From: an uncultured Verrucomicrobia subdivision 3 bacterium
Lineage (GTDB): Bacteria > Verrucomicrobiota > Verrucomicrobiia > Limisphaerales > UBA8199
Reading direction: 5' to 3'
Assembly (NCBI GenBank): GCA_903913865.1
Contig: CAIWMU010000214.1
Location: 69,386 to 133,385, forward strand
DNA: 64,000 nt
Shown: positions 1,120 to 54,116 of the stretch, in pieces
Numbering within the stretch: position 1 is the stretch's first letter
How the letters are laid out: every line of letters starts with the position of its first letter
The notes under the pieces: model-generated
What the model was told of the DNA's origin: nothing
The model's database searches: none
The model's input: the letters and a program-made list of their open reading frames with translations, nothing else
Made by a program: the position numbers and the translations under genes

Positions 1120-1134
1120 TCCTCCCTCCCCTTA

Positions 1135-1308: not shown

Positions 1309-1330
1309 CTGCAGTAGCCAGAGAACCAAA

Positions 1331-1711: not shown

Positions 1712-1716
1712 CGATC

Positions 1717-2145: not shown

Positions 2146-2166
2146 ACACCGGCCCGCCCCTAATAG

Positions 2167-2538: not shown

Positions 2539-2551
2539 ACATTTTTAACCC

Positions 2552-4201
2552 ATGAACCGCAATCTGTCACAGCTCGGATCCCAGCTCCTGGCAACCTGGA
2601 AGCAGCTCGGCCTGAACCAGCGTATCAGCCTTGTTCTGGCGTCCAGCGTCGTCATAGGGGGTGTCATAGCCCTGATGGCGTGGTCCGGCCGGGCCGATTA
2701 CGCGCTCCTCTACGGCAAACTCTCGGATACCGAGGCCGCCCGCGTTGTTTCAGCACTGGACGACACCAAAACCCCCTACAAGGCCACCGGCGGCTCGATC
2801 TATGTCCCGGCTGACAAGGTTCACCTGCTCCGAATGCAACTCGCTGGCAAGGGCATCCCCCGGGGCGAAGGTGTTGGATTTGAGATTTTCGACAAACCGA
2901 ACTTCGGGATCTCCGACTTTGTGCAACGGGCCAATTATATTCGTGCCATTCAGGGGGAACTCTCCCGGACAGTCTCGCAACTCGATGAAATTGAGCAGGC
3001 ACGGGTAATGGTGGTTCTGCCTGAGAACCGGCTGCTGGTGGATAAAGACCGTCACCCCACCGCCTCGGTGTTTGTGAGAGTGCGCGGCAACTCCGTGCTT
3101 CCCGCCCAATCAGTGAATTCGATCCGCTTTCTCGTGGCCAACGCGGTTGAGGGCCTGAAGCCCGGCTATGTAAGCGTTGTAGACAATCAGGGCAATGTCC
3201 TGTCGGAAAACGGCGATGATGACTCAATCAGCGGCATTTCGAGTGCGCAGTTTGGTGCCCGGCGTAATCTTGAACAATATCTCGCAAAAAAGGTTGAAGG
3301 CATGCTCGAGAAAGTCCTTGGCCCGGGCCAGGCGATCGTTCGCGTCGCAGCAGAGGTCAATTACGATACAACGAGCACGGTTGAGGAAAAGTTCGATCCC
3401 GAAGGCCAGGTGATCCGCAGCGAAACCAAGAACGACGAGAATGTGGATACAAGCCGCAGTTCTGCTGGTGATGTCGTGGGAACAGCGGTGAACACTAGTG
3501 CCCTGTCGAACGCGCCGAGCGCCAACAACCCGGTCAACAGCGTCCGGAACCAAAAGGCCGTCACGAAGGTTGAATACGATGTCAGCAAGACCACGAGCAA
3601 CACCTTCCGTGGAGGTGGCGGTGTCAAACGGATCTCGGCTGCCGTCTCCGTCGCCGCCCGCTACGAGGGCACAGGCAGCGCACGAAAGCCCGCCCCGCGC
3701 GCACCCGAGGATCTGGAAAAGCTCCGCCGGATGGTCGCTGGTGCCCTGGGTGCCGACACTGTTCGCGGCGATCTGGTCAGCCTTGAGGAACTTCCCTTCA
3801 ACACTGATGTGGCCACCGAAATCACCCGCCAGTTCCAGCAGGACGAGAAATGGCAATACTGGCTGGCGGCTGCCCGTTCGCTCGGCTATCCAGCATTGGC
3901 GGTTGCCGTCATGATTTTTCTGGTGCGACTGATGAAGCGCACGCCCGTTGACCAGATCCCGATCGGAATCCCACTTGCCCAGTTCGCCGGTCGCGGAGGC
4001 AACGGGAACGGAAACGGTCATGGAAACGGCAGGGGGAACGGCCACGGCCTCGACTGGTTCAAGCCACCCCAACGCGAGACGGTGAGCGTCGAGGTTCTCA
4101 ACCAGCTCGTTAAAGAAAACCCCGGCAATATGACCCAGGCCATCCGGAACTGGATGGCCACCAGCGCCACCACTGAGACCCCACGCAATGACGCCTCCTG
4201 A
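2552..4201 (+). CDS. fliF: Flagellar M-ring protein FliF
   Basis: N-terminal TM segment and YscJ/FliF domain (YALLYGKLSDTEAARVVSALD.., IYVPADKVHLLRMQLAGKGIP). Second TM near the C-terminus. Position between fliE and fliG. Confidence 0.93.
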   Translation: MNRNLSQLGSQLLATWKQLGLNQRISLVLASSVVIGGVIALMAWSGRADYALLYGKLSDTEAARVVSALDDTKTPYKATGGSIYVPADKVHLLRMQLAGKGIPRGEGVGFEIFDKPNFGISDFVQRANYIRAIQGELSRTVSQLDEIEQARVMVVLPENRLLVDKDRHPTASVFVRVRGNSVLPAQSVNSIRFLVANAVEGLKPGYVSVVDNQGNVLSENGDDDSISGISSAQFGARRNLEQYLAKKVEGMLEKVLGPGQAIVRVAAEVNYDTTSTVEEKFDPEGQVIRSETKNDENVDTSRSSAGDVVGTAVNTSALSNAPSANNPVNSVRNQKAVTKVEYDVSKTTSNTFRGGGGVKRISAAVSVAARYEGTGSARKPAPRAPEDLEKLRRMVAGALGADTVRGDLVSLEELPFNTDVATEITRQFQQDEKWQYWLAAARSLGYPALAVAVMIFLVRLMKRTPVDQIPIGIPLAQFAGRGGNGNGNGHGNGRGNGHGLDWFKPPQRETVSVEVLNQLVKENPGNMTQAIRNWMATSATTETPRNDAS

Positions 4202-5243
4202 TACGGACCCGAAGGCAGCCACGAGCGAATACTCGCGGCTGTCCAAGATACAGAAACTGGCCATCCTTCTGGTGATGCTTGGGCCGGACAACGCCTCCAC
4301 AGTTCTCAAGCGCTTTGACCTGCAGGAAGTCGAGGCCATCTCCACGGAAATGGCCAAAATGCCAATGATAAGCGAGGAAGTGCAACATGAGCTGCTGATG
4401 GAATTTTCAGAGGTCGCTGTGCAGGCAGGGGCCTCCCTCACCGCCGGACTGGATGTCGCGCGGGCCACTCTGGAGAAGGCCGTCGGCCTCTTCAAAGCCA
4501 CGGAAATCATCGGCCGTGTTTCTCCAACGCGGACTCCCGTCGCCGCCATGCAGGAGGTGGTGGACATGGAACCGCGGCAGATCTTCAACCTCATCCGGGA
4601 CGAGCAACCCCAGACAGTGGCGCTTGTCCTGAGCTATGTGGGCACCGAGAAGGCGGCAGAATGCCTCACCTACTTCCATTCAGATCTGCGCGACCGGATT
4701 CTGGAGCGCATCGCCAGCCTTGCACCAACACCGATCGAAGTCGTTGAAACCGTGGTTCGGGTGCTTGTCAGTAAACGGGGATCCAACCAGACCCGTGCCC
4801 TGAACCAGACCGGCGGCGTCAAGACTGCAGCCGATCTGCTCAACGCGATGGACAAAAACACCGGCAAGTCGCTGCTCGCCGCCATCGAGGAACGTAATGC
4901 CGAACTCGGCATGGCCATCCGGCAAAAAATGTTCACGTTCGAGGACCTCATCCGCCTGGATCAGGTTGCCCTCCAGCGTATCCTCCGGGAAGTCGATTTG
5001 CGCGATCTTGCCATTGCCCTCAAGACCGCAAGCGAAACTCTCAAGCTGTCACTCCTGGGCTGCATCTCGAAGCGCGCTGCCGAAACGGTCCAGGAGGAAA
5101 TCGCCTTCATGGGACCGATAAAGCTGAGGGACATAGAAGGCGCACAGATCAAGATCATCGAGGCGGTCCGCAAACTGGAAACCGACGGGGAGGTCGATCT
5201 GGGCGAAGTCAACAGGAGGGGAGGGCGCTATGCGATGGGGTGA
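4188..5243 (+). CDS. fliG: Flagellar motor switch protein FliG
   Basis: KLAILLVMLGPDNASTVLKRF.., MFTFEDLIRLDQVALQRILREVD, and C-terminal torque-helix region. Overlaps the fliF end. Confidence 0.93.
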   Translation: MTPPDTDPKAATSEYSRLSKIQKLAILLVMLGPDNASTVLKRFDLQEVEAISTEMAKMPMISEEVQHELLMEFSEVAVQAGASLTAGLDVARATLEKAVGLFKATEIIGRVSPTRTPVAAMQEVVDMEPRQIFNLIRDEQPQTVALVLSYVGTEKAAECLTYFHSDLRDRILERIASLAPTPIEVVETVVRVLVSKRGSNQTRALNQTGGVKTAADLLNAMDKNTGKSLLAAIEERNAELGMAIRQKMFTFEDLIRLDQVALQRILREVDLRDLAIALKTASETLKLSLLGCISKRAAETVQEEIAFMGPIKLRDIEGAQIKIIEAVRKLETDGEVDLGEVNRRGGRYAMG

Positions 5244-5805
5244 AAAAATCCATCTGCATGCCCCGCTGAAAGGGGCCCAACTCACAAGCATGGAATCCCT
5301 GCCCATGACCCAGGTGATTCTCCGTGAGAATGGCGCCTTTGCCCGGGGCACCATGGAGGGGGAACGCCGCCTGAGCGAACAGTTGATTGAGCAGCGTAAC
5401 CAGTTGATGGAGCTCCAAAACGGTGTCCTCGCCTCTCTTCAGGCTGCTGTCGCCGATGTTATGCGCCAATCGGAGCAGGCCATGGTTCAACTCGCACTCA
5501 CAATTGCCGAGAAACTTGTGGGTTCCATCCCGATCTCCCCGGAAATCGTCGCATCCTCCGTCCGCTCCGCTCTCGCCGATGCCGGTGAGGCTACTGAATT
5601 TCAGATCAAGTTGAATCCAGAAGACATCGCCCTCCTGAAGGAGACAGGGTCTCCCCTGCTCGAACCCGGACCTGGAACGACATTCCATCTTGAAGCCTCG
5701 TCGGCAATCAGCCGTGGTGGCTGCATGGTAGTCACCAAATTTGGCATCATCGACGCCAGACGTGAGACCCGTCAGACACGCATCGCGGAGGCCTTGGCCC
5801 CATGA
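5230..5805 (+). CDS. fliH: Flagellar export-apparatus protein FliH
   Basis: C-terminal FliH/YscL-like region (KLNPEDIALL...SRGGCMVVTKFGIIDARRETRQTRIAEAL). Lies between fliG and fliI. Exact start uncertain. Confidence 0.7.
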   Translation: MRWGEKIHLHAPLKGAQLTSMESLPMTQVILRENGAFARGTMEGERRLSEQLIEQRNQLMELQNGVLASLQAAVADVMRQSEQAMVQLALTIAEKLVGSIPISPEIVASSVRSALADAGEATEFQIKLNPEDIALLKETGSPLLEPGPGTTFHLEASSAISRGGCMVVTKFGIIDARRETRQTRIAEALAP

Positions 5806-7178
5806 GCAGGGCCCTGCATCAAGTCCCCGGCTCCATCCTGAAAGAAGCACTCTTTCGGGTTCAGTCAGTCCGCCCGAATGTTGCCCGGGGACGCGTGGTT
5901 CAGGTCACCGGTTTGGTGATAGAATCCGAGGGCCCGCTCGCCGCCATTGGCGAGGTGTGTCGCATCGAATCAGGCGTTGGCGAGGCACCCATGCTCGCGG
6001 AGGTTGTCGGCTTCAGGAGCCACCATCTCCTCCTCATGGCCCTTGGTGAGATTCGCGGCATCCACCCGGGCAGCACCGTCGTTGCGCTGCGACGCCCCCT
6101 TCAAGCCCGCATTGATGACAGCATCAAAGGCAGGGTCATCGATGGTTTGGGCAATCCGCTGGACGATCTCGGGCCGCTCACCGGCTCCCACACCATCGGC
6201 CTCGGAATGCAGCCACCCCACCCCTTGAAACGGCAGCGCATCCAGCAGGTCTTCCGCACCGGCGTCAAAGCCATTGATTCCTTCATACCCTGTGGCCGGG
6301 GGCAGCGGCTCGGCATTTTCGCAGGCAGCGGCGTGGGCAAATCCACCCTGCTGGGCATGATGGCCAGCCAGGCAGAGGCCGACGTCAACGTCATCGCACT
6401 CATCGGCGAGCGTGGTCGTGAAGTGCGGGAATTCCTTGAAAAGGACCTGGATGATCATGGCCGCAAAAAATCGGTCATCGTCACCGTGACATCCAACGAG
6501 CCACCTCTGCTCCGCCTGAAGGGGGCCCTTCTGGCCATGGCCATCGCCGAATACTTCCGCGATGCAGGCCAGAATGTGCTTCTGATGATGGATTCTGTGA
6601 CACGCTTTGCCATGGCGCAACGGGAGATCGGCCTCGCGATTGGCGAACCACCCGCCACCCGTGGTTACACCCCCTCAGTTTTCGCGCTCCTGCCCCAGTT
6701 ACTCGAGCGGGCCGGCGCAGGGGAAAAGGGATTCATCACGGGCCTCTTCACGGTCCTGGTTGAGGCAGATGACATGAACGATCCGATTGCGGATTCCGTC
6801 CGCTCAATCCTGGACGGCCATATCGTTCTCAGCCGTGAGCTGGCCACAAGAAACCACTACCCGGCCATCGATGTTCTCGAGAGTGTCAGCCGTCTCAACC
6901 GTGACCTGTTGAGCCGGGAACAGCTCGCACTGACGGGACGCGCACGGGAACATCTGGCGGTGCATCGCAAGAATCAGGATCTGATCAGCATCGGAGCCTA
7001 CCCGGCCGGTAGCAGCCCTGCAATTGATGAGGCAATCCGGCTTGATGAACCGCTCAAACGGTATCTCACACAGGACATCCGCGAGGAGGTGACACTGAAC
7101 GAATGCTGGGCATCCCTCGCTGAGCTGCTGATCAAACCCCCGGCTCCCAAACCCGCCCAAAAACCTGCAAGGCCATGA
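5802..7178 (+). CDS. fliI: Flagellum-specific ATPase FliI
   Basis: Walker A GIFAGSGVGKSTLLGMM, Walker B VLLMMDSVTRFA, F1/T3SS ATPase architecture. Confidence 0.95.
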   Translation: MSRALHQVPGSILKEALFRVQSVRPNVARGRVVQVTGLVIESEGPLAAIGEVCRIESGVGEAPMLAEVVGFRSHHLLLMALGEIRGIHPGSTVVALRRPLQARIDDSIKGRVIDGLGNPLDDLGPLTGSHTIGLGMQPPHPLKRQRIQQVFRTGVKAIDSFIPCGRGQRLGIFAGSGVGKSTLLGMMASQAEADVNVIALIGERGREVREFLEKDLDDHGRKKSVIVTVTSNEPPLLRLKGALLAMAIAEYFRDAGQNVLLMMDSVTRFAMAQREIGLAIGEPPATRGYTPSVFALLPQLLERAGAGEKGFITGLFTVLVEADDMNDPIADSVRSILDGHIVLSRELATRNHYPAIDVLESVSRLNRDLLSREQLALTGRAREHLAVHRKNQDLISIGAYPAGSSPAIDEAIRLDEPLKRYLTQDIREEVTLNECWASLAELLIKPPAPKPAQKPARP

Positions 7179-7648
7179 AGCAATTTCGTTTTACACTGAG
7201 GTCCATTCTAAAGCTCAGGGAAGACCGCGAGGAGGAGGCTGAACGGCACTATGGCCGCACTCTCCACAGCCTGGAGGTTGCAAAGCAGCAGGTCGCCCAG
7301 GCAAATAGTGAACTGGATACCTGCTGGCAGGGCACTCTGAGTGCTGCCGCTGCCGGATGCCAGGCATGGCACTTGGATCACAACCGGCTTTACGCCCACG
7401 ACCTCAGGCAGAAGATCGTTCAACTTGAAATCCGCCAGAATGAGGCAGCCGCAGCCGCTCAGGCAGCCCTCGGCGCCCTGCAGATGGCACGCCAGAAACG
7501 TGAGATCCTGGAAAAACTGCAGGACCGCCGCAAACAGGATTACCTGACCGCCACCGCCCGCAGCCTCCAGAATCAACTCGATGATCGGGTCTCCGCCACC
7601 TTCGGCCGACCCACCGCTCTCACCCACCAAGCCTCCTCATACCCATGA
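7175..7648 (+). CDS. fliJ: Flagellar export chaperone-like stalk protein FliJ
   Basis: 157-aa coiled-coil protein (FRFTLRSILKLREDREEEAERHY..). ATGA overlap with fliI; canonical position. Confidence 0.7.
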   Translation: MKQFRFTLRSILKLREDREEEAERHYGRTLHSLEVAKQQVAQANSELDTCWQGTLSAAAAGCQAWHLDHNRLYAHDLRQKIVQLEIRQNEAAAAAQAALGALQMARQKREILEKLQDRRKQDYLTATARSLQNQLDDRVSATFGRPTALTHQASSYP

Positions 7649-8262
7649 TGCGATTCCTCACATCCCCATGGTTCGGTGCAGCCACCTGCTTCCTGACCTT
7701 CTCCACCTGCGTCTGGATCTTTTTGAATCCCCAAAAGAACTTCCATCCCCCTCCGGCTGCCGCAAAGTCAGCCACCAGTCACAAGATGGTCCCCTCGTGG
7801 GAATACAAAAACCCTGAGCTGGATCAACTCCTAACCGAGGCACGCGCTGAGCGGGAAGCCCTCCGGGTTCGCGCTCAGGATCTCGCAACACTCGAAGCAC
7901 GCCTCAAAGCCGAGTGGCAGGAGATCACCGTCGTCACCCAGACGGTTGCGCGGCTTCAGGCCCAATTGGACCGCACCGTTACATGTGTCCAGCAGGAGGA
8001 GGCCACCAATCTAAAGCGCCTGGGCAAGATGTATTCCACCATGAAGCCGGATGCCGCCGCCAAACTTCTGGCGGAACTTGAGGATGGTCAGGCCATTCGA
8101 ATCCTGACCATGATGAAAGACACGGAGTCAGCCCTCATCCTTGAGAGTTTTGCAAAGACGGATCAGGCCAGCCTAAAGAGGGCGGCCAAACTCTCCTACC
8201 GATTGCGGCTCACCCTCCCTCCCGGCGCACTCGAAAAAACACTTCCTGTGGGAAAATCATGA
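7645..8262 (+). CDS. YlxF/MotE/FlbB-like flagellar protein (N-terminal TM, coiled coil, MgtE_N-like repeat)
   Basis: KMYSTMKPDAAAKLLAELEDGQAIRILTMMKDTESALILESFAK resembles the MgtE-N/MotE motif. Occupies the ylxF slot between fliJ and fliK. Confidence 0.6.
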   Translation: MMRFLTSPWFGAATCFLTFSTCVWIFLNPQKNFHPPPAAAKSATSHKMVPSWEYKNPELDQLLTEARAEREALRVRAQDLATLEARLKAEWQEITVVTQTVARLQAQLDRTVTCVQQEEATNLKRLGKMYSTMKPDAAAKLLAELEDGQAIRILTMMKDTESALILESFAKTDQASLKRAAKLSYRLRLTLPPGALEKTLPVGKS

Positions 8263-9458
8263 ACGTATCAGGCCTCCCCTCCAACACGGCCACACAATCC
8301 GACCACACCCAGCCAACCCCAAACCCCAACGCAGAACTGCCCAGTTTTGCTGACTTTATCGATATCGCCGTGGCGCCCTCGAAAGATCGCTCCACGGATA
8401 ACGACCCTGATGATCTGGAGGAGGAGGAGGAAAAACACACACAAGCTGGAGACTGCCTCGATCCGATCCGCCTTCTCTGCACCCTCCCCCCGCCTCCGCC
8501 CGTTGTCCCGCAATCTCCCCAAGCCGCATCCCCCGCCCCCCGACAACCCACCATCCTTGAACAGGCCCCCAAGGAGGAGGCTGACAGCGCGACAAAGGAG
8601 GAACCCCCAACCGCAGCACCCTCCCCGGTCACCAACCCGGCCAGCCAAAAGAAACTGGAGGCCCCACCCGGTCCGGTGGTCCCCCAAAACACCGCCAAAG
8701 AGCCGCCACCAACTGCATCCCCTCCAACCAGCCAATCCTCTGTTGAGAACCAGCCCCCCCTCCCGGAGCCACCGCCAGCGCCACCGATTGATGGCATGGG
8801 GATTGCTCAATCAGGAGTAGCTGTGAAATTGATGCAACAACTGGACGAAACTACCCTGTCGGGGCAGAAAAATCTGCCGACAGCCCTGTTTCTCGGGGAG
8901 GCAAGCCGCAAAGCCGCCCGACTGGCCGATGTTTCGAGCCCGTTTGTGGCCGCAAGCCTGACCTCTGGAACCGGCACCACCCCCCAGGAAACCCCTGAGG
9001 TGATCCCCGCAGCCCTGACATCCCTCCATCGTGTGGAACAGTTGGAAAAACTGCATGCCACCGCCACCGATTGTGCCCTGCTGCTAAGGCAGACAGGAAA
9101 AGAATCCGTTTCGGTGGTCATCAAGCCGGATGCGGGAACCGAGTTGCAACTGCATCTCAGGATGCGGGATGGCATTGTGGAAGCCACCGCCGAGATGCAC
9201 AAAGGGAGTTCAGCCGCCCTCGAAGCTGGCTGGAAGGAACTTCAACAGCGTCTGGAACGTCAGGGCATTCAGATCGCCCCCTTGGAAAACTCCCAGTCGT
9301 TCACGACGGGTGAGCGCGGAGAACACAAGCCGCAACGTCAGGACTCCACAGAGGTGGATCGATCCCTTCCCCTAAACCACCCGACACGCCACACCCAAGC
9401 CGGAGCCAGAAACCCGCAACCCGCCCCGACCAATCGCTCTTGCGAATACTGGGCCTGA
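8259..9458 (+). CDS. fliK: Flagellar hook-length control protein FliK
   Basis: Pro-rich central region. C-terminal Flg_hook-like block (VSVVIKPDAGTELQLHLRMRDGIVEATAEMH..AALEAGWKELQQRLERQGIQI). Position before flgD. Confidence 0.75.
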   Translation: MNVSGLPSNTATQSDHTQPTPNPNAELPSFADFIDIAVAPSKDRSTDNDPDDLEEEEEKHTQAGDCLDPIRLLCTLPPPPPVVPQSPQAASPAPRQPTILEQAPKEEADSATKEEPPTAAPSPVTNPASQKKLEAPPGPVVPQNTAKEPPPTASPPTSQSSVENQPPLPEPPPAPPIDGMGIAQSGVAVKLMQQLDETTLSGQKNLPTALFLGEASRKAARLADVSSPFVAASLTSGTGTTPQETPEVIPAALTSLHRVEQLEKLHATATDCALLLRQTGKESVSVVIKPDAGTELQLHLRMRDGIVEATAEMHKGSSAALEAGWKELQQRLERQGIQIAPLENSQSFTTGERGEHKPQRQDSTEVDRSLPLNHPTRHTQAGARNPQPAPTNRSCEYWA

Positions 9459-9470
9459 ACCAGCCAATTT

Positions 9471-9896
9471 ATGAGCACCATCACCGCCACATCCCAGATT
9501 TCCAGCAACTTAACAGGATCCGACCCCAGCCGCCTCCCCACCCAGACCCTCGGGCAGGATGATTTTCTGAAGCTGCTCGTCGCCCAGATGTCGACACAGG
9601 ACCCTCTTAATCCGACGAAGGACAGCGACTTCATCGCCCAGATGGCCCAGTTCAGCTCACTTGAGCAGGCAAAAAACATGGGAAATCAGCTGGGGTCCCT
9701 CCGCCTGGAACAGGAATTTCTTCAGGGCAACCAACTCATTGGTCGCGCAGTGGAACTGGAGGACGGTGGCAGCACCCTCAGCGGGGTGGTTTCTGCCATG
9801 CGAATTGAGGCAGGGACGCCGAAAATCGAAGTCAACGGTCACCTCTACGATCTCACCCAGGTGCGCTCGGTTGCGGTGCCCACAACCAACGGCTAA
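9471..9896 (+). CDS. flgD: Flagellar hook-capping protein FlgD
   Basis: QDDFLKLLVAQMSTQDPLNPTKDSDFIAQMAQFSSLEQ is the FlgD signature. Confidence 0.9.
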   Translation: MSTITATSQISSNLTGSDPSRLPTQTLGQDDFLKLLVAQMSTQDPLNPTKDSDFIAQMAQFSSLEQAKNMGNQLGSLRLEQEFLQGNQLIGRAVELEDGGSTLSGVVSAMRIEAGTPKIEVNGHLYDLTQVRSVAVPTTNG

Positions 9897-9901
9897 AACT
9901 C

Positions 9902-10720
9902 ATGCTCTCTTCCTTGAATTCAGGTGTCAGTGGCATCCAGCAGATGCAACAGCGGATGGATGTCATCGGCAACAACATCGCAAACGTCAATACAACCGGC
10001 TTCAAAAGCGCCCGCGCACTCTTCGCGGACACTTTCAGCCAGGCAATGAACGGATCCAGCTATCAGGTCGGCTCCGGGGTGACCACCAGCTCGATCCGCA
10101 GCGAGTTCAGCCAGGGCACCATCTCCCAGACAGGTGCTCCCGCCGATATGGCGATTGATGGAAACGGCTTCTTCGTTGTCCGCAACCCGCTTGATGGCAG
10201 CACCTACGCAACCCGTAGTGGAGAATTCCACAAGGACAACTCCGGATATCTCGTCAATGATGCGGGCTACCGGGTTCAGGGTTTTTCGGATGCGGGCCTG
10301 ACCACCCGGGGCGATCTCATGATCAACAGCACCGGGGCCCCTGCCACTGCGGCTGCCGATGCCACAGTCACCGGGCTCGGCTTCGACAACGAGGGCAAGC
10401 TTACAGTCCGCCTCAGTGATGGCACATCATTCGTGCGCGGCCAGGTGCTCCTTCAGGACTTTCAGAATCCGCAGACGCTCGTCAAGGAGGGGGGGAACCT
10501 CTACTCGAATATGGCCTCCGCCGGCCCTCTCACACAGACTCTGGCCCCGAAATCCAACGGGCTGGGCACCATCTCCTCCGGCGCGATCGAAACGTCCAAC
10601 GTCGATCTCACCAGCGAGTTTGCCTCCCTTATCACCACCCAAAGGGCCTTTCAGGCCAACGCAAAAATCATCACAACCAGCGACGAGATATTGCAGGATG
10701 TGGTGAACCTCAAACGCTAA
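9902..10720 (+). CDS. flgE: Flagellar hook protein FlgE (short form, 272 aa)
   Basis: N-motif MDVIGNNIANVNTTGFK, C-motif SNVDLTSEFASLITTQRAFQANAKIITTSDEILQDVVNLKR. Directly follows flgD. Confidence 0.8.
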   Translation: MLSSLNSGVSGIQQMQQRMDVIGNNIANVNTTGFKSARALFADTFSQAMNGSSYQVGSGVTTSSIRSEFSQGTISQTGAPADMAIDGNGFFVVRNPLDGSTYATRSGEFHKDNSGYLVNDAGYRVQGFSDAGLTTRGDLMINSTGAPATAAADATVTGLGFDNEGKLTVRLSDGTSFVRGQVLLQDFQNPQTLVKEGGNLYSNMASAGPLTQTLAPKSNGLGTISSGAIETSNVDLTSEFASLITTQRAFQANAKIITTSDEILQDVVNLKR

Positions 10721-29658: not shown

Positions 29659-30522
29659 CTAGGCGTAAAGGACCGCCTTGAGATCCCGAACCATCACCCC
29701 GATGAACGGGTAGCGGCGCTCCGGATCGCGGTCAATGCACCGCAAAATCACCTTTTCCAGTCCCGGCGGCATCTCAGGATTGTAGCCGCTGGGCGGCACA
29801 AATTCCGAACGGTCCAACTGGCGGCGGAGAATCTCGCCAGGCGTCTCCCCGGGGAATGCCTTCTGGTTGGTCAGCAACTCAAAAGCAGTCACGCCAAACG
29901 CAAAAATATCGACGGGAAACGAAATCGGCTCCCCCTGCAATTGCTCCGGTGCCATGTAGGAGGGGGTCCCGGGATTCTTGCCTGACTGTTTTTTGGGCTT
30001 TTCAGGGATGGGCTGTGCCAGATCGAAATCAACCAGTCGCAGGCTTCCGTTGGGGGTCACCAACACATTCTCAGGCTTGAAATCGAGGTGCATGTAGCCA
30101 TTGTCATGCATGTGCTCCAGCGCCCCGGCCATGTCCAGAAGGATCTGAGCCACATTCTCCAGAAGCACCGCGTCGTGTCGGGAGTAAAGCTCCTTCAAAT
30201 TGGCCGCTTCCACATACTCCATCTGGCAATAGAGCCGCCCATCCGCCTTGCCGTGCTCATGGTAACCGATGATGGATGGATGGTCGCTGATGCTGGCAAG
30301 AATTTCGCACCCCCGCACAAACCGCCGACGCGCACCAAAGTCGAACCTGAAGCGCTCGTGCATCCGCCGGATGGCATACGACTTCCCATGGCTGTCCGTG
30401 CCCAGCCAGATATCCGCCATGCCCCCGCTGTTGATATGCTCCTGCAGATAAAAACGGCCAAACGGCCCGGGGGCGGGCGTTGCTGCACTGTTACTCGTTG
30501 AACTCTTTCCGAACACGATCAA
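29659..30522 (-). CDS. Ser/Thr protein kinase-like protein (kinase domain only, atypical VAIK and DFG motifs)
   Basis: HLDFKPENVLV catalytic loop, GTPSYMAPEQ activation segment, G-loop-like INSGGMADIW. The beta3 motif reads YAIRRM (Arg where Lys is expected). DFG reads DFD. Confidence 0.85.
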   Translation of the reverse strand: MIVFGKSSTSNSAATPAPGPFGRFYLQEHINSGGMADIWLGTDSHGKSYAIRRMHERFRFDFGARRRFVRGCEILASISDHPSIIGYHEHGKADGRLYCQMEYVEAANLKELYSRHDAVLLENVAQILLDMAGALEHMHDNGYMHLDFKPENVLVTPNGSLRLVDFDLAQPIPEKPKKQSGKNPGTPSYMAPEQLQGEPISFPVDIFAFGVTAFELLTNQKAFPGETPGEILRRQLDRSEFVPPSGYNPEMPPGLEKVILRCIDRDPERRYPFIGVMVRDLKAVLYA

Positions 30523-30647
30523 CCTTCTACCAGATTCATCCCATTCCTGCCATAGAATTGAGTGACCCGTTCACCTTCAACGCAAACCTTCCTCGAGAAG
30601 TCCACCTCCAACTCATTGGCATTGCCAAGCACTCCGGGGGATCTACG

Positions 30648-33095
30648 ATGGATTGTGTGACGAACCGCTTGCCATCGCGCCGCCGTGTGGATCAGGACAT
30701 ACCAAAAGGGATTCCTCTTCGGAACATCCCACCGGTGCCGAGGCTGTCCACTCCACCCCTCCTGATACGCGCTGGCCTTCTCATTCTCGGTCTCCTTCTC
30801 GCCGCCTCCGATCCCCTCCTTGGCCAAACGCGCCTGAAGCTGTCCGCCATCACCCCGGGAACTGAAAAGGTTCAGCTGGTCTATAACGGGGACTTCCAGT
30901 CCCAGCAGGCCGCCACCGGCGGCCGCTTCCTGCCCGCCAACTGGCCCGGCTCCCCGGATGTGGTCACAGGCGCGGGCTCCAACAGCGTGCCCCAAAACGG
31001 CGGCCGCATCGCCTGCGCTCGCGTGGATGGCGGTGCCGCCGCCGCAGGTGTCAACCGCACCCTGACGCTCAGCGCCAACACCAGCTACGTCCTCAGCGCC
31101 TACCTCTGGAATCTTGGCGATGCCACAAACCGCGTAAACACGGTTATCGACATGAACGACGTCTCCGGCGAACCGCAGATGGCGCTCGGTTCCGGTGATT
31201 CCGAGGCCGATCTTGGCTACTTTGTCTATCGAACCTTCAACACAGCCACCACGGGAACCAACGTCACCCTGCGCCTGTTCTACGACGGCTTGGCAGGCAC
31301 CGGTGCTGCCACCCGGTTTTATCCCTTCGCCGCCCAGTGGGACAACATCGCGATCACCCGGTCGGTCGATTTCATCGCCCCACAGACCCGGGCCTCCGGT
31401 GGCAACCTGCGCCCGACGGTCCGGGTCGAAAGCCCCGTTGACTCCACCACAGCCCTCCTCGCCTCGACCCCTCCGGTCCTTTCCATTTCAGCCACCGCCG
31501 GCGATTACGATGGATCCATCACGAACGTCGATTTCTTCGCCGGGGCAACACGACTCGGATCAACGCGCAACCCGCCCTACACCGTTCTGTGGACCAATCC
31601 CGCTTCCGGCCCCTGCGTTTTGACGGCTGTGGCGAGTGACAACCGGGGAGCCGCCACCCTCTCCGCACCGGTCGCCATCGTGGTCGCACTCCCCCGTCCT
31701 CCAGTGTCTCTCAGCATCGCCCGCTCCGGCTCCAACGTGCTCGTGTCATGGCCCACACAATCAACCGGACTTTTCCTCCAATCTGCCACCCTGACCGGTC
31801 CTACGCCTCCATGGCAACTGCTCACAAATCCAACCACCCTGAGTGCCGGGGTGAACCAGACCACTCTGCCCGCCCTGCCGGGACAGCGCCAACTCCGGCT
31901 CGGCCCGGATGTCTCCCCCTTCACCCTCGATCGCAAGCTGATGATGGGTTACCAGGGCTGGTTCGCCTGCCCGGGTGATGGCTCGCCGCTCAACCGCTGG
32001 GTTCACTGGTTCCGCAGTCAGACCCCTGTTGCAACCAACCTGACCGTGGACTTCTGGCCGGACATCTCCGAACTCGATGCCGATGAACTCCATGCCACGG
32101 GCATGACCCTCCCGGATGGATCCCCAGCCCGCCTCTACTCGGCCTTTAGTCAAAAGACGGTCGTTCGCCACTTCAAATGGATGAAGGAAAATCATCTCGA
32201 CGGCGTGTTTCTCCAGAGGTTCTCCTCGGAACTGTCCAGCTCCGACCTCCTGTTCCACCGGGACCGCGTCACTGAGAACGTCCGGGTGGGTGCTGAAACT
32301 CACGGGAGAATTTTTGCCATCATGTATGACATCTCAGGCCAGCCGCAGGCGACCCTCCAGCAGACGCTCACCAACGATTGGATCCACCTCATCACAGCCC
32401 TCCAGATCACCAACAGTCCCTCCTACGTCCACCACAACGGCAAGCCGGTCGTCGCCATCTGGGGCTTCGGCTTCACAGATCGCACCGGCACCCCGCAGGA
32501 CGCCCAGATCGTGATCAATTTCTTCAAGGCCGCCGGTTGCACCGTCATGGGAGGCGTGCCCACCTACTGGCGCACCCTCACTGGCGATTCCCAGATAGCC
32601 GCCACCTGGGCTCCCGTTTACCGGTCCTTCGACATCATAAGCCCGTGGGCGGTGGGCCGCTACGGCACCCAGGCCGAGGCGGACACCTTCAAGCAAAACC
32701 TTATTGTCCCGGATCTGGCTGAGACCAGGCTCCGGGGTATCGCCTACATGCCGGTGATCTTCCCTGGGTTTTCCTGGCGCAACCTCACAGCCGGAACCCT
32801 CAACCAGATGCCACGCAACGGCGGGGACTTCTACTGGCGCCAGGCCTGCAACGCGATTTCCGCCGGTTGCACGATGATTTATGGAGCCATGTTTGACGAA
32901 ATGGACGAAGGCACCGCGATGCTCAAGATGGCACCCACATCCGCCACACTTCCAACCCAGGCCACCCTCGTTCCCCTCAACATCGACGGCCGCACCCTGA
33001 ACAGTGACTGGTATCTGCGCGTGGCCGGAGAAGCCACCAAAATGCTCCACCGCGAGATTCCCTTCACCAACTCGATCCCCATAAAGTCGCCATGA
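30648..33095 (+). CDS. Secreted multidomain protein with C-terminal TIM-barrel glycoside-hydrolase-like domain
   Basis: Internal ATG 30648 precedes a TM/signal segment (LLIRAGLLILGLLLAAS). N-terminal carbohydrate-binding-like and Ig-like regions. C-terminal MMGYQGWFACPGDG...VAIWGFGF...YGAMFDEMDEGTAMLK pattern as seen in proteins annotated as xylosidase/arabinosidase-like hydrolases (from memory; family not verified). Confidence 0.6.
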   Translation: MDCVTNRLPSRRRVDQDIPKGIPLRNIPPVPRLSTPPLLIRAGLLILGLLLAASDPLLGQTRLKLSAITPGTEKVQLVYNGDFQSQQAATGGRFLPANWPGSPDVVTGAGSNSVPQNGGRIACARVDGGAAAAGVNRTLTLSANTSYVLSAYLWNLGDATNRVNTVIDMNDVSGEPQMALGSGDSEADLGYFVYRTFNTATTGTNVTLRLFYDGLAGTGAATRFYPFAAQWDNIAITRSVDFIAPQTRASGGNLRPTVRVESPVDSTTALLASTPPVLSISATAGDYDGSITNVDFFAGATRLGSTRNPPYTVLWTNPASGPCVLTAVASDNRGAATLSAPVAIVVALPRPPVSLSIARSGSNVLVSWPTQSTGLFLQSATLTGPTPPWQLLTNPTTLSAGVNQTTLPALPGQRQLRLGPDVSPFTLDRKLMMGYQGWFACPGDGSPLNRWVHWFRSQTPVATNLTVDFWPDISELDADELHATGMTLPDGSPARLYSAFSQKTVVRHFKWMKENHLDGVFLQRFSSELSSSDLLFHRDRVTENVRVGAETHGRIFAIMYDISGQPQATLQQTLTNDWIHLITALQITNSPSYVHHNGKPVVAIWGFGFTDRTGTPQDAQIVINFFKAAGCTVMGGVPTYWRTLTGDSQIAATWAPVYRSFDIISPWAVGRYGTQAEADTFKQNLIVPDLAETRLRGIAYMPVIFPGFSWRNLTAGTLNQMPRNGGDFYWRQACNAISAGCTMIYGAMFDEMDEGTAMLKMAPTSATLPTQATLVPLNIDGRTLNSDWYLRVAGEATKMLHREIPFTNSIPIKSP
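32990..33093 (+). repeat. Direct repeat copy 1 (104 bp): functional 3' end of the hydrolase-like CDS
   Basis: Hand alignment with 34837-34940 gives 101/104 identical. Confidence 0.9.
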
Positions 33096-34084
33096 GATCA
33101 CCAATCACCAAAACGACTCTCCCGGCTCGAAAAATTAACATAGTTCGCCCCCCAATGGGTCAGAAACACCCCGCCAAAGTTCACCACGATCCCGCGATTC
33201 CGCCTAACACAGCTTCCAGCCCAATACCCTTGCCCGAGAGTGAGGCGCGCCAACGAGCAAGGCGTAAGAGAGCTAAAGCTCTAGCCGCCTCGCTTGCTGA
33301 GTGGAAAGGTAGCACGGGGGCATTTGTTCGGCATCTCGATCGCCAAGGAGTTGACTACCTGTCCTTTTCACATGTCAGTTCCTTGGAATTTTGCCCCTAC
33401 CGCTATTACCTTGAGTTTGTTCGCCGTATCCGGCTCGTCCCCCAACCGGATTACTTTATCAAAGGCCGAATTCTTCATGAGGCACTGGCAAGGTACTACC
33501 GAGGCTTTGGGCGTGGTCGCGTCCCAACTCCTGACATGCTTCACAAATTCATCGACCGCCACAATCGCGCAGATGGGAGCCAACTGAAGAACGCGATAAC
33601 ACTCGCCATTCAAAATGTTCGGCAGGGCTGGGAAGTTGTGGCGGTTGAGAAGCCCTTCATAACGGACCTCGGGGGCAGCCTGCCTCCATGCTTGGGTGTG
33701 GTTGATCTTATCCTCCGCAAAAACAATTGCTACGCGGTGGTGGATCACAAATCGTCTCGAAGGTTTACGGACGACGATGCGGATGGATTACAGCTCGAAA
33801 TCTACCGTAACTTTGTTCGCCAATCCTACAAGGCTGAGGTTTGTATGGCTTTCTATGATGAATACCGCTGGGTTGATGACTTGGGGCGGATCAGGAAGCC
33901 CGCTTTTCGGAGAGTCCTTTTAGAATATAACCTGCAGGAGTGGGAATCAGTATTGAACCGTCTTGTCAGGGCGCACGAGGAAATGCTCGCGATTCGAAAG
34001 GGTGGAAGAGCATCAGGCTCGGGGAATTGCTATATGTGCCCCTTCAAAGTGCGATGCCCAAAGGCGTCCACTTCAAGGTGGTAA
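33092..34084 (+). CDS. Cas4/RecB-like PD-(D/E)XK nuclease with four-Cys (Fe-S type) motif
   Basis: N-terminal Cys (SLEFCPYRYYL) plus C-terminal CYMCPFKVRC. GRILHEAL. D...D-x-K core (GVVDLIL...YAVVDHKSS). QLEIY (QxxxY). The ATG overlaps the upstream TGA. ATG 33155 is a possible alternative start. Confidence 0.75.
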   Translation: MRSPITKTTLPARKINIVRPPMGQKHPAKVHHDPAIPPNTASSPIPLPESEARQRARRKRAKALAASLAEWKGSTGAFVRHLDRQGVDYLSFSHVSSLEFCPYRYYLEFVRRIRLVPQPDYFIKGRILHEALARYYRGFGRGRVPTPDMLHKFIDRHNRADGSQLKNAITLAIQNVRQGWEVVAVEKPFITDLGGSLPPCLGVVDLILRKNNCYAVVDHKSSRRFTDDDADGLQLEIYRNFVRQSYKAEVCMAFYDEYRWVDDLGRIRKPAFRRVLLEYNLQEWESVLNRLVRAHEEMLAIRKGGRASGSGNCYMCPFKVRCPKASTSRW

Positions 34085-34197
34085 AGCTGTATTTTATCCT
34101 TAATCAGAATCATGGCAGAAGGAAGCCGGGCCAGGTTGAACCAGTTCTTGTATCCAATGAACCAATCCAGTAGTCTTCACCATACAACCGTCAAAAC

Positions 34198-34818
34198 ATG
34201 AAAAAGAAGAAAAATGTTTTTTGTCTTGAAGGAGACTGGTGGAATAACCTTTTAAAGCCATCGACAGTTGAGCCTATCCTGAACCTCCTCGCAAAAGCAG
34301 ACGGATACCGCTTCAAGTATATTCACCGGAATGTATCCAACCGTCCTACGTTTGATCAATTCGTCACAAAGTGGACAAAAAAGCAGTTCAATGATTATCC
34401 GATTCTGTATCTCGCATTCCATGGCGCAGAAGGCCAATTAGAGGTCGGGGCTAATAGTCATCCGGAAAACACCGTGGATCTCAAGGAACTCGGAGACCTA
34501 CTTGAAGGAAAATGTGAGGGTAGGGTGATTGTCTTTGGAAGTTGTAAAACGGTGGGGGTCCATGGATCGCACCTCAATACATTCCTCAAAAGGACCCGTG
34601 CTTTGGCGGTATGTGGCTACGTTCGCACAGTCGATTGGGTTCTCTCTACAGCATTCGAGTTGATCCTAATGGAGTTCCTTCAACGTAACGCCCTGACAAG
34701 TGCAGGACTCGGTGCGGTTCAGAAAAAGATCAATAAAATGATCAAAACTACCAGCAAGACACTTGGTTTCAGAATGGTCATTAAGCCCCGCCCAAAAACG
34801 AGGACCAAGGGTCGATGA
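34198..34818 (+). CDS. Uncharacterised 206-aa protein with caspase/CHAT-like His...Cys strand-end pattern
   Basis: Hydrophobic strand plus HG (PILYLAFHGAEG) and hydrophobic strand plus SC (RVIVFGSCKT). Lys-rich tail. Very AT-rich codons relative to the window. No signal peptide. Confidence 0.6.
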   Translation: MKKKKNVFCLEGDWWNNLLKPSTVEPILNLLAKADGYRFKYIHRNVSNRPTFDQFVTKWTKKQFNDYPILYLAFHGAEGQLEVGANSHPENTVDLKELGDLLEGKCEGRVIVFGSCKTVGVHGSHLNTFLKRTRALAVCGYVRTVDWVLSTAFELILMEFLQRNALTSAGLGAVQKKINKMIKTTSKTLGFRMVIKPRPKTRTKGR

Positions 34819-34836
34819 TAGGTAATCCATTAACAA

Positions 34837-34940
34837 CCGCACCCTGAACAATGACTGGTATCTGCGCGTGGCCGGAGAAGCCACCAAAATGCTCCACCGC
34901 GAGATCCCCTTCACCCACTCGATCCCCATAAAGTCGCCAT
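34837..34940 (+). repeat. Direct repeat copy 2: orphan duplicate of the hydrolase gene's last 34 codons, ending in TAG
   Basis: RTLNNDWYLRVAGEATKMLHREIPFTHSIPIKSP* versus RTLNSDWYLRVAGEATKMLHREIPFTNSIPIKSP* in copy 1. Confidence 0.9.
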
Positions 34941-35051
34941 AGGGAAATTCTCCCTGCCATCAAAGCACCCCCTCCCCAAAATCCGAACAGGCTGCCCCAA
35001 GCCCGCTGACCTCGAACCCTTTCCGGATTCAACGCTGCGGGAATTCCCACC

Positions 35052-35160
35052 CCCAAGCCGGAGGCTTGAAAGCTTGTAGCCGGTGGTTGAGGAGCCACGC
35101 GACGACACCACCGGTCAACGACCAATACGAACCCCGACCCCGGCAGGGGTCGCAGCGCAC
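35052..35160 (+). repeat. Degenerate repeat, copy A (core CCAAGCCGGAGG...GCCGGTGGTTG...GGTCGCAGCGCA)
   Basis: Shares ordered blocks with 35341-35430. A partial inverted core (TCAACCACCGGC) sits at 35485-35496. Confidence 0.5.
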
Positions 35161-35340
35161 TGTGCCGGAAACACAGTGCGAATTCATTTGCGACGTGTTA
35201 CACAAACCAACTGGCTCCCATTCTGAGCCCCGCTGCCGGGTCCGGACGATTTCCGCTGCGGACCTGGGGCGTTGCTCTCGCTCACCCCCTCGCTTACAGG
35301 CTGGCACCCCCTCCCCTGGGAACCGGGAATGCCCGATGCA

Positions 35341-35613: not shown

Positions 35614-35808
35614 CTATTTCGGCATGTTTTCAGCCTCCAGGGTGTTTGCCAGATCCTTTTCAGCGAGAACCCAGTCTTCAAGAGTGAGATTGTGATCCGA
35701 TAATTTGTCGCGGAACAATTCAAAGGCATGTTGCCGCACCATGGGCCGGGTGATGCCCGGAGTGAACGGCATCGGTTGTTCCAGTTTCTGCACGATTTGT
35801 TCGTTCAT
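35614..35808 (-). CDS. Small DUF2934-like protein (64 aa)
   Basis: Internal ATG preceded by GGAAGGAG. VRQHAFELFRDK....LEDWVLAEKDL matches the RAYELW...DW..AE..L pattern of DUF2934 (from memory). The longer ORF in the track would overlap crcB. Confidence 0.55.
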   Translation of the reverse strand: MNEQIVQKLEQPMPFTPGITRPMVRQHAFELFRDKLSDHNLTLEDWVLAEKDLANTLEAENMPK

Positions 35809-35938
35809 AGCTGCTCCTTCCATTATCAACATACTCCCCTCCCGACATCCTGCAACCGGTCTTTCAACTTCTTTCCGCGCCGCTTGCGGCTTGCCTTGCG
35901 GGCCAATTTGGGAAACCGTTGACGCGCAGGCTTGGATT

Positions 35939-36337
35939 ATGTGGAATGCGTTTTTGATCTTCCTCGGCGGCGGACTTGGCAGCGTGGCGAGGTGGCTCGC
36001 CTCGGGCCTGGTGGCGACCCGCTTTGGTGAGGCTTTTCCCTGGGGCACCCTCGTCGTGAATGTGACCGGCTCCTTCGTGATCGGCTTCTTCGCCGCATGG
36101 ACGGGTCCCGGTGGCCGCTCCACAGTTCCTCCAGCCTTCCGCCAGTTTTTCATGCTCGGCATCTGCGGCGGCTACACAACCTTTTCCTCGTTCAGCCTGC
36201 AGACTCTCTCCCTGATGCAGTCCGGGGAATGGTGGCGCGCCGGGGGCAATTGCATCCTATCCGTGGTCCTTTGCCTGATCGGAGTCTGGCTGGGGCACGC
36301 CGCAGCTCTGGCACTATCCGGCGGCAGGGGGGCTTGA
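35939..36337 (+). CDS. crcB: Fluoride channel CrcB/FluC
   Basis: MWNAFLIFLGGGLGSVARWL...FPWGTLVVNVTGSFVIGFF...LGICGGYTTFSSFSLQT has the typical CrcB motifs. Internal ATG 35939. Confidence 0.9.
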   Translation: MWNAFLIFLGGGLGSVARWLASGLVATRFGEAFPWGTLVVNVTGSFVIGFFAAWTGPGGRSTVPPAFRQFFMLGICGGYTTFSSFSLQTLSLMQSGEWWRAGGNCILSVVLCLIGVWLGHAAALALSGGRGA

Positions 36338-52999: not shown

Positions 53000-53035
53000 T
53001 AATTGTCACTGATGGCGAAGAATAATTGTCACTGA
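53000..53035. promoter_or_regulatory. Two copies of TAATTGTCACTGA spaced 23 bp start-to-start (possible operator)
   Basis: Exact 13-mers at 53000-53012 and 53023-53035, in the AT-richer gap between the efflux operon and the tRNA. Confidence 0.3.
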
Positions 53036-53237
53036 CCAACTACGCCGCCACCGCAGCCTCTCCCACAACTGCTCCACCCACCACACCCTCCCAACCCTCA
53101 TCCCATCCCCCTTTCCTGCAGTTCGTGCCTTTCCTGATTAAATCCCCCCCGCACACTCTCACAAAGAAACTCACTTTCGAGTGCTTGCTTGATGTTGCTT
53201 GCGGAGGATTTCCCGTTTATGATCAACTCACATCGGA

Positions 53238-53313
53238 GCCTCCATAGCTCAAATGGATAGAGCAGCGGTTTCCTAAACCGTTGATCCCTGTTCAATTCAG
53301 GGTGGGGGTACCA
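53238..53313 (+). tRNA. tRNA-Arg (anticodon CCT), CCA encoded
   Basis: Hand-folded cloverleaf. Acceptor GCCTCCA/TGGGGGT (two G-U pairs). D arm GCTC-AAATGGATA-GAGC. Anticodon arm GCGGT-TTCCTAA-ACCGT. T arm CCCTG-TTCAATT-CAGGG. Discriminator A, then CCA. Confidence 0.9.
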
Positions 53314-53504
53314 TTCTTAAACCGTTGTAAATCAGCCTTTTATGTGACTTTCCTGCGGTTTCCCATTTTTCCACCAAACCCCCAAAAGTGGCAAAAAGTG
53401 GCATTTTCAGGCAAAAAGAGGATAGCCGCCCTTTTCACGAACCGATCCCCCGCACCAGACCCACTGTTCCAGCCTCCCACTGCGGCGCTCCGGGATGAAG
53501 GGGC

Positions 53505-54116
53505 TCATAGCTGGTAAGCAACTGCCCCCTCTGGTGTTACGTCGATCAGTTTCCTGGCGACCAGGGCAGTCACGATCTCCTCAACTTCCACATCGGTCAA
53601 TTCTTTCTGAAAAAGCGCATTGATTGTCGTCAATAGGGACCTCCTTCGCTTGGGAAGAGTGGCTTTGCTTTTCTGGAAGCGCTCGACCACCCACTCCACC
53701 CTCTCGGCCAACGAAAGCCGACCCTTGACCACCAGTGCCGGGATCCTGGCAAACTCCTCATTCCGGCTGGCCCGGATGCCGCTGCCGCGCATGTGCTCAA
53801 TCAATGGGTCGTAGTCCTTGTCCCTGGCAAGAATGTGGTAGTAACCGTTTGGATCGACCTTGGCCTGCAGTCCGACGTGATACGCGAGCACCAAATCCAG
53901 AGCGTTCGGGCTCGCCCCTTCCGATTCGATCCACTCCACCTGATCATGGTAACGGTGGATCTGTCTGGCCAGAAGGGACGGCAGCGTCTTGCGACGCTGC
54001 CCCACCACCAGGAACACCTTCACGGCCTTGCCGGCGATGAGATCGAGATCCACTTCCTGAACGTTCTCGTAATCAACAAAAATGTAGTTCGTCCGAATGG
54101 CTGCATCTGTGGTCAT
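53505..54116 (-). CDS. NYN/PIN-like (LabA/DUF88-type) domain protein
   Basis: Internal ATG 54116 preceded by AAGGAG. NYIFVDYENVQEVDL, VFLVVG, ALDLVLAYHVG, HILARDKDYDPLIEHMR match the NYN acidic-residue pattern (by eye). Confidence 0.65.
   Translation of the reverse strand: MTTDAAIRTNYIFVDYENVQEVDLDLIAGKAVKVFLVVGQRRKTLPSLLARQIHRYHDQVEWIESEGASPNALDLVLAYHVGLQAKVDPNGYYHILARDKDYDPLIEHMRGSGIRASRNEEFARIPALVVKGRLSLAERVEWVVERFQKSKATLPKRRRSLLTTINALFQKELTDVEVEEIVTALVARKLIDVTPEGAVAYQL

Follow-up and report, generated by a model that had tools for sequence, protein, structure and literature searches.

Caspase- and CHAT-type proteases of clan CD are emerging as executioners in bacterial immunity, as in Craspase, SAVED-CHAT and the gasdermin activators. 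The catalytic signature of the clan consists of HG and (S/A)C-x-T motifs that follow consecutive strands, and the catalytic triads are Glu152-His211-Cys244 in RgpB (gingipain R) and Asn42-His148-Cys189 in legumain. To our knowledge, the described bacterial caspase/CHAT immune proteases carry or bind a sensor. Here, we analyze a gene for a 206-residue protein of the Pfam family DUF6642, located at 34198..34818 (+) of a 64,000-nucleotide (nt) stretch of DNA, referred to as the window, from an uncultured Verrucomicrobia subdivision 3 bacterium (GenBank assembly GCA_903913865.1, contig CAIWMU010000214.1, positions 69,386 to 133,385). According to structural modeling, the protein very probably has the clan CD fold with a His-Cys dyad. 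Our overall interpretation, towards which we lean, is that it is a minimal clan CD peptidase that arrived together with a Cas4-like nuclease, the two plausibly forming a small conflict module.

The best structural matches of the protein are CHAT proteases (SAVED-CHAT of type III CRISPR/CBASS-like signaling, 8tl0; Craspase TPR-CHAT/Csx29, 7y84 and 8d9f; expectation values (E) of 2e-7 to 1e-5, query TM-scores (TMq) of 0.52-0.62), with which it has in common a His-then-Cys dyad after consecutive strands, in the 'HG ... (S/A)C-x-T' style. Unlike SAVED-CHAT and TPR-CHAT, the DUF6642 protein measures only ~200 amino acids (aa) and lacks a SAVED, TPR or other sensor domain, and its gene, unlike those of CHAT immune proteases, is not found here beside CRISPR, CBASS or cyclic-nucleotide genes. 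A caspase-3-like pattern is recognizable locally: 'LAFHGAEG...VDLKEL...GKC...VIVFGSC' in the 206-aa protein compared to 'LLSHGEEG...VDLKKI...DRC...LFIIQAC' in caspase-3. However, the Gln of the caspase 'QACRG' motif, the Arg residues of the Asp-binding S1 pocket and the p20/p10 linker of caspases are all absent, and, unlike in caspases, acidic residues (Glu11 and Asp13) follow strand β1. Glu11 thereby occupies the same place in sequence order as the third residue of gingipain R and legumain, which is acidic or an amide and also follows the first strand.

DUF6642, a widespread single-domain family

The open reading frame (ORF) starts with ATG and encodes the motifs PILYLAFHGAEG (with His75) and RVIVFGSCKTVG (with Cys116), the N-terminal KNVFCLEGDWWNN and a Lys/Arg-rich tail, all as described in an earlier note made from the DNA letters alone; inspection likewise bears out its statement that there is no signal peptide, as no hydrophobic segment of this kind is seen at the N-terminus. 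The same note regarded the protein as an orphan, but also tentatively suggested a DUF family whose members begin with FCxEG(D/F)W. This suggestion was correct and leads to Pfam DUF6642 (PF20347), which matches the protein over its full length with 70.3 bits at a cut-off of 27 (E 2.2e-19; protein residues 5-193 on profile positions 2-180 of 182). Orphan status is therefore ruled out by the Pfam match, and equally by homology searches: a word-indexed search retrieved 238 close homologues, with PF20347 present in all of the best 120 listed, nearly all of them ~200 aa long, and the DUF6642 hidden Markov model (HMM) also matched 38/38 aligned homologues. When the family profile was searched exhaustively against 1.84 billion representatives of clusters defined at 50% identity, 1,568 matched at E<=1e-3, of which 389 reached E<=1e-30; of the 150 matches listed, nearly all are single-domain proteins of 185-215 aa.

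In a motif-anchored scan with one genome per species, DUF6642 was found in 225 genomes. The phyla include Acidobacteriota, Gemmatimonadota, Planctomycetota, Verrucomicrobiota, Cloacimonadota, Bacteroidota, Myxococcota and others. A literature search found no paper mentioning the family, and NCBIfam holds no model matching the 206-aa protein. One member already bears the UniRef name 'CHAT domain-containing protein', and the assignment of a fold to this catalogued DUF is an incremental advance. New are the conservation evidence for a Glu-His-Cys (E-H-C) site, the link of DUF6642 to a large unannotated sister family of ~380 aa and its pairing with a Cas4-like nuclease, rare but recurrent, in neighborhoods of the conflict type. 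If the assignment holds true, DUF6642 would be a widespread bare catalytic core (~1,570 clusters in many phyla, ~200 residues), whose substrate and control, once shown, would define a minimal prokaryotic caspase.

Predicted fold and putative active site

The AlphaFold2 (AF2) model of the 206-aa protein, computed from a 38-sequence alignment, has a mean confidence (pLDDT) of 91.5 and a predicted TM-score (pTM) of 0.89, and its order of strands and helices is typical of the caspase-hemoglobinase fold, an α/β fold built around a central sheet of six strands. Foldseek returned 233 matches in the PDB at E<=1e-3, the top 50 of which are CHAT proteases or caspases only, with a Foldseek probability of 1.00: the SAVED-CHAT filament 8tl0 ranks first (E 2e-7, TMq 0.60-0.62), followed by caspase-4, Craspase TPR-CHAT, caspases-3/-6/-7 and CED-3. 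In the viral structure library BFVD, the best match is an uncharacterized Myoviridae protein, most other strong matches are giant-virus caspase, clostripain or metacaspase-like proteins, and the named matches at E<=1e-3 are caspase or clostripain proteins. A sequence-only search of the PDB with the DUF6642 family profile gave no significant match, and Peptidase_C13 is matched by a single one of the 38 members, weakly (E 0.24). The protein is clan-CD-like by structure, yet belongs to a separate sequence family.

In the model, His75-Gly76 (codons 34420..34425, +), the putative catalytic His within an 'FHG' motif, directly follows strand β3 (residues 69-73), and Cys116 (codon 34543..34545, +), the putative nucleophile within a 'GSCxT' motif that reads G-S-C-K-T on inspection, follows strand β4 (residues 110-113). 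The earlier note had compared the order and spacing of these residues to the clan CD dyad. The order and register agree, and the count gives 41 residues between His75 and Cys116 rather than about 45, compared to 42 in caspase-3. A profile-sequence alignment with hhalign places His75 on His121 and Cys116 on Cys163 of caspase-3, although weakly (E 0.026, hhalign probability 2%). Conservation was scored over 268 DUF6642 members, counting those with a residue at the respective position. His75 is kept in 264/267 members, Gly76 in 263/267 and Cys116 in 267/268, and because of this near-invariance the His/Cys pattern is far beyond chance. Similarly constrained is Glu11 at the end of strand β1 (codon 34228..34230, +), which is kept in 259/260 members. 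All three residues align with invariant residues of the ~380-aa second family, namely a Glu, His283 and Cys319.

These data bear on the notion that the protein is a pseudo-enzyme, whose caspase-like domain is inactive and serves a structural purpose, or else that it binds a metal through its conserved Cys and His residues; we consider either hardly credible. C9, C106 and C116 together with His75 could in principle bind a metal. However, C106 is replaced in ~17% and C9 in ~4% of the members (retained in 221/267 and 249/259, respectively), whereas His75, Gly76 and Cys116 are kept in >98%; moreover, C106 in the model opens the segment that runs into strand β4, and C116 comes just after the end of this strand, which puts them at opposite edges of the sheet. 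The metal site is hence judged unlikely from residue conservation. Also at odds with this notion are the HG and (S/A)C-x-T motifs, which form the signature of catalysis in clan CD when they follow consecutive strands as they do here, and the dN/dS ratio of ~0.19 between two alleles of the gene (see below), which indicates purifying selection on an intact protein.

The protein is best described as a minimal stand-alone core of the caspase-hemoglobinase fold (~195 residues), closest in structure to the CHAT proteases, which most likely acts as a cysteine endopeptidase. Cys116 would serve as the nucleophile and His75 as the general base. Glu11, by analogy to Glu152 of gingipain R and Asn42 of legumain, may orient His75 or line the S1 pocket, and is therefore a candidate third catalytic or S1-pocket residue. 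Overall, cysteine peptidase activity of the DUF6642 protein is predicted with fair confidence.

The Cas4-like nuclease and the repeat-bounded cassette

Upstream of the DUF6642 gene, at 33092..34084 (+), lies an ORF of 330 aa for a Cas4/AddB-like PD-(D/E)XK nuclease with four Cys residues, which ends 113 nt before the DUF6642 gene begins. It matches Pfam PDDEXK_1 (E 1e-19) and, in PADLOC, generic Cas4/DruK nuclease models only (Cas4 models at E 1e-8 to 1e-10). Its conserved residues are C101, D205, D218-H-K220 and C313/C316/C322, so that it shares with Cas4/AddB-type iron-sulfur (Fe-S) nucleases the PDDEXK_1 domain, the D...D-H-K core, an N-terminal Cys and the C-x2-C-x5-C motif. A true CRISPR Cas4 is ruled out by the score against TIGR00372 (cas4), which at 36.9 bits remains below the 65-bit cut-off, and by the absence of a CRISPR array: the 64-kb window contains no array-like tandem repeats and no cas genes.

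The ATG of the nuclease at 33092 overlaps the TGA stop of the upstream gene. The first ~60 residues (33092-33270) are basic and Pro-rich and are absent from most homologues, being present only in one (P0122); the homologues measure ~273 aa and align from about residue 60. Some contigs are called with a 309-aa nuclease from Met22, and the true start may be at this Met22 (33155). The nuclease family comprises 78 homologues in a protein search and 140 confirmed loci in a metagenome scan, and its members keep the D...D-H-K core, one N-terminal Cys and C-x2-C-x5-C. It seems to travel in mobile or conflict regions.

Both genes are bracketed by 113-nt direct repeats that are 94% identical. The left copy (32981..33093, +) is the functional 3' end of an 871-aa Big_7-domain gene (30480..33095), and the right copy (34828..34940, +) is a displaced copy of this 3' end, which finishes in TAG at 34940-34942. 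The inserted DNA amounts to ~1.73 kb (33096-34827) and holds two genes only. In 1-kb bins, 34001-35000 has the lowest G+C content of the window (0.479 vs ~0.60). The earlier note's description of the gene, lying 113 nt downstream of the nuclease in a repeat-bounded, compositionally foreign cassette at the G+C minimum of the window, is borne out in every part. Probably, the DUF6642 gene did not originate at this locus, but arrived together with the Fe-S nuclease gene as a low-G+C islet of ~1.73 kb, which would have recombined into the 3' end of the host gene with duplication of 113 nt. The 113-nt spacer between the two genes contains no terminator consensus, and the genes are probably co-transcribed.

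The cassette recurs in ~20 metagenome contigs of the same population. One of them, L098, is syntenic with the window over 13 kb; its flanking chromosome mostly differs by 0-10 mismatches per 250 nt and by up to 16 in one segment of this length (~1-3%), whereas its nuclease gene differs by 1 mismatch in 1 kb. Judging by this contrast, strains seem to have shared the cassette more recently than the DNA around it. Neither an empty site nor a circular form turned up; an exact search of the metagenome collection for the repeat core gave 0 matches and is uninformative.

Two alleles of the DUF6642 gene

In two of the related loci, L084 and L098, another DUF6642 allele is present, with only 75% protein identity to that of the window. 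The difference is confined to a sharply bounded allelic block (34250..34727, +; counterparts at 1203-1680 in L084 and about 7160-7640 in L098) with ~72% DNA identity, outside of which the DNA is ~100% identical, both in the nuclease gene and at the two ends of the DUF6642 ORF (the first ~50 and the last ~90 nt). The alleles differ at 134 positions, mostly third codon positions, with 50 synonymous and 51 non-synonymous codons; the non-synonymous and synonymous divergences are dN 0.18 and dS 0.93, respectively, giving the dN/dS of ~0.19 mentioned above. Glu11, His75 and Cys116 are retained in both alleles.

A diversity-generating retroelement or hypermutation is ruled out by the lack of an A-bias in the differences, by their preference for third positions and by the dN/dS ratio. 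Judged from these patterns, the divergent block is an old, functional allele that was swapped in by homologous recombination. Diversifying or balancing selection is compatible with the polymorphism, and a single import event could also account for it.

A second pairing in an ARPP-1 neighborhood

A Cas4-like nuclease is followed by a DUF6642-superfamily gene in one further lineage (L106/L107/L108/L114). Here the nuclease is 46-49% identical to that of the window, and a protein of 413-473 aa without Pfam domain (L107, 6854-8275) is encoded 59 nt downstream on the same strand. It belongs to a family of ~380 aa with 424 matches, mostly 375-400 aa long and without Pfam annotation (P0204-P0323); the organisms named for two members are Planctomycetes and Gemmataceae. 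The C-terminal half of this family is homologous to DUF6642 (hhalign probability 96%, E 4e-9, 183 columns; alignments A2 vs A6), and the Glu, His and Cys residues as well as the GY...DW patterns of the two families coincide in the alignment. Its AF2 model (pLDDT 82.5) comprises a three-repeat all-beta, barrel-like N-terminal domain and a subsequent caspase-fold domain, which matches caspases-11/-7/-8 by structure. The ~380-aa family (>420 members) thus extends the DUF6642 superfamily.

The gene order in L107 (3431-8275) is HTH_3/ImmA (Peptidase_M78) - ARPP-1 - Cas4-like nuclease - caspase-like protein. In L203, a caspase-like protein 60% identical to that of L107 directly follows ARPP-1 without a nuclease, and the island (147-10261) reads Trypsin - TY-Chap1 - AAA_5 - ARPP-1 - caspase-like ... 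Exo_endo_phos - ADP_ribosyl_GH. More distant members of the ~380-aa family stand alone. Both neighborhoods resemble the ARG-centric systems, which are predicted to be antiviral (anti-ADP-ribosylation) and are characterized by ARPP, TY-chaperones and variable effector modules, a role taken by nucleases of the restriction endonuclease (REase) fold (Iyer, Burroughs, Anantharaman, Aravind 2022, PMC9503650). In contrast to L107 and L203, the description of these systems includes no caspase-fold component (the word 'caspase' occurs 0 times in PMC9503650), and the window cassette, unlike ARG-centric systems, contains no ARG, ARPP, phosphatase or chaperone gene. Literature searches on Cas4 with CHAT and on TY-Chap with caspase retrieved nothing relevant.

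The presence of ARPP-1 next to the second-lineage homologue and of an ADP-ribosylglycohydrolase in the island of its L203 relative invites the thought that the E-H-C site catalyzes an acyl transfer or hydrolysis other than endoproteolysis. It might carry out GPI8-like transamidation, remove peptide or ADP-ribose-linked adducts, or resolve covalent protein-nucleic acid adducts made by ARPP or SRAP-like neighbors, while the nuclease processes the nucleic-acid part. Covalent sugar adducts are a predicted product of ARPP (PMC9503650), an SRAP gene occurs in the island of a nuclease relative (L091), and neither the Pfam CHAT profile (PF12770; no match even at E<=10) nor the Peptidase_C14 HMM (no match in any of the 38 members either) recognizes the 206-aa protein; CHAT is matched weakly by 3/38 relatives, with a best E of 0.007. 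However, the strong structural neighbors are all true endopeptidases, and the cassette in the window has neither an ARPP nor an ARG or SRAP gene. This activity is therefore quite improbable for the protein, and an endopeptidase is preferred.

Distribution of the pairing and possible function

If the two genes of the cassette are functionally linked, they might form a small conflict, i.e., defense-type, module, in which the nuclease is regulated or assisted by the protease, whose target could be the nuclease itself or a protein of the host or of the invader. A functional link between the two and a role in conflict or defense are plausible, though tentative; the defense-island evidence, which would also bear on the abortive-infection idea of the earlier note, is circumstantial. 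Should they apply, the repeated pairing with a Cas4-like nuclease would represent a compact, testable candidate defense module; if instead the genes are neighbors by accident, what remains is a useful annotation of the fold and active site of a DUF.

Several observations weigh against such a module, in addition to the silence of the CHAT and C14 profiles. The window-type nuclease occurs in 0/88 other DUF6642 loci (989 kb, searched by tblastn and with the family HMM). It is missing from the closest unlinked relatives, P0003 and P0005 (61-62% identical), where an ankyrin-repeat gene or small ORFs adjoin, as well as from P0010 and P0011 (48-51% identical). Most DUF6642 genes look monocistronic and show lineage-specific synteny with housekeeping genes, among them a convergent DEAD-box helicase (11 loci), sigma-70 (7), CTP synthase (3) and PhoH/PIN (3). 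On the nuclease side, a downstream DUF6642-superfamily gene is rare, with 1/39 other lineages that offer at least 700 nt of downstream sequence, and in L112, a close relative, ARPP-1 and the nuclease are present but the caspase-like gene is missing. No family in PADLOC-DB 2.0 matches the 206-aa protein at E<=1, no DUF6642 member was found in IMG/VR or GenBank phages, and only one was found on a plasmid (L210, NZ_CP093444.1 54050-54778, Brevibacterium spongiae, 28% identity). Neither of the two genes of the cassette is a recombinase. Finally, the protein has no sensor or regulatory domain to hold the protease back; regulation of this sensor-less caspase core by dimerization or partner binding is a guess.

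The neighbor census covered 54 upstream and 59 downstream genes of DUF6642 loci, among which no recurrent partner gene was found. The gene calls were greedy, G+C3-weighted and heuristic, and replaced a clustering of all neighboring ORFs that was too noisy in high-G+C loci; 15/83 loci gave no DUF6642 gene call, and many neighborhoods come from fragmented metagenome-assembled genomes. Single cases of PADLOC genes adjoin DUF6642 genes: BrxA, BrxL, type I and type IIG restriction-modification components, PtuB, AriA and PDC-S01. On a rough count with small numbers and without background set, defense genes make up ~8% of the neighbors, above random expectation. A phage origin was rejected, given the absence of DUF6642 from the phage collections above and an identity of just 22-28% between the nuclease and its relatives on viral contigs.

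A rival reading is hitch-hiking: a caspase-fold peptidase with a cellular role, such as regulatory or quality-control proteolysis, which its stand-alone relatives suggest, and an unrelated nuclease would both be cargo of one islet, without functional coupling or any role in defense. The 0/88 count and the syntenic housekeeping neighbors, which suggest vertical inheritance, point in this direction, as do the highly variable neighbors of the nuclease relatives and the allelic block, which replaces the DUF6642 gene only and thus marks this gene as exchangeable independently of the nuclease. However, in two lineages the homologous genes follow each other in the same order, on the same strand and at a short distance (113 and 59 nt), and both pairs reside in conflict or defense-type surroundings. 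The two recruitments are also independent, because each protease partner nests among unpaired relatives. Moreover, 2/40 nuclease lineages with an immediate downstream partner are well above chance according to our own estimate, made without formal test, since a genome of several thousand genes contains at most about one DUF6642-type gene. Hitch-hiking is accordingly rather unlikely in our view, albeit a serious contender.

We thus retain the minimal peptidase that arrived with the nuclease as the favored interpretation, in a form that corrects the earlier note. Its phrase 'partner of the nuclease' does not hold for the family, in which DUF6642 genes mostly stand alone, and it gains substance from the recurrence of the pair, with a remote homologue, in one other lineage. 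On the available sequences, the pairing of the nuclease with a DUF6642-superfamily gene appears to have arisen at least twice, and to be rare and facultative. A far-reaching version would be an undescribed two-gene antiviral or abortive-infection module, assembled independently twice or more from stand-alone DUF6642-superfamily genes, in which a Cas4-like nuclease and a sensor-less E-H-C protease cooperate, one licensing the other. The alleles would then reflect an arms race with phage inhibitors or substrates, and DUF6642 together with the ~380-aa 'beta-barrel + DUF6642-like' family would constitute a new branch of prokaryotic caspase-like immune proteases. This version is speculative, and we regard it as unlikely.

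The variable integration site and its surroundings

Contigs of two sister strains depart from the window behind the cassette. Homology of L094 to the window stops exactly after the TAG of the right repeat (junction 34942), and what follows in L094 (1811-4843) is an oppositely oriented gene for a large protein with MBG_2 repeats; the end of the repeat thus acts like a junction formed by recombination. L093 diverges at 35155, beside a terminator-like hairpin (35156..35180, +) downstream of the cassette, and continues (2736-8054) with genes for a C5 cytosine methylase, for MzaB, which matches HATPase_c_3, and for MzaC, which has a Z1 domain. Together these make up the Mza defense system of PADLOC, which is absent from the window. 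Because of the Mza system in L093 and the junction in L094, the region behind the Big_7-domain gene can be regarded as an integration site that varies between strains and takes up defense systems as well.

Some relatives of the two genes have neighbors of their own. EVE (PUA-like) genes are located downstream of a nuclease homologue in L126 (1395-1925, E 6e-8) and upstream of another in L090 (3-413, with a weak E of 0.004). The L091 island with a nuclease relative holds, besides the SRAP gene, umuDC-like genes and an integrase. The plasmid-borne DUF6642 gene of L210 lies ~1.3 kb downstream of a gene for an 'abortive infection family protein'.

Within the window, a CrcB fluoride-channel gene (35705-36337) is found downstream of the cassette; a search with Rfam gave no family in 32-37 kb at E<=1, and thus no fluoride riboswitch. 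The single tRNA gene of the window (tRNA-Arg CCT, 53238-53313) coincides with a second, milder G+C dip (0.547 at 53001-54000), which could represent another island boundary.

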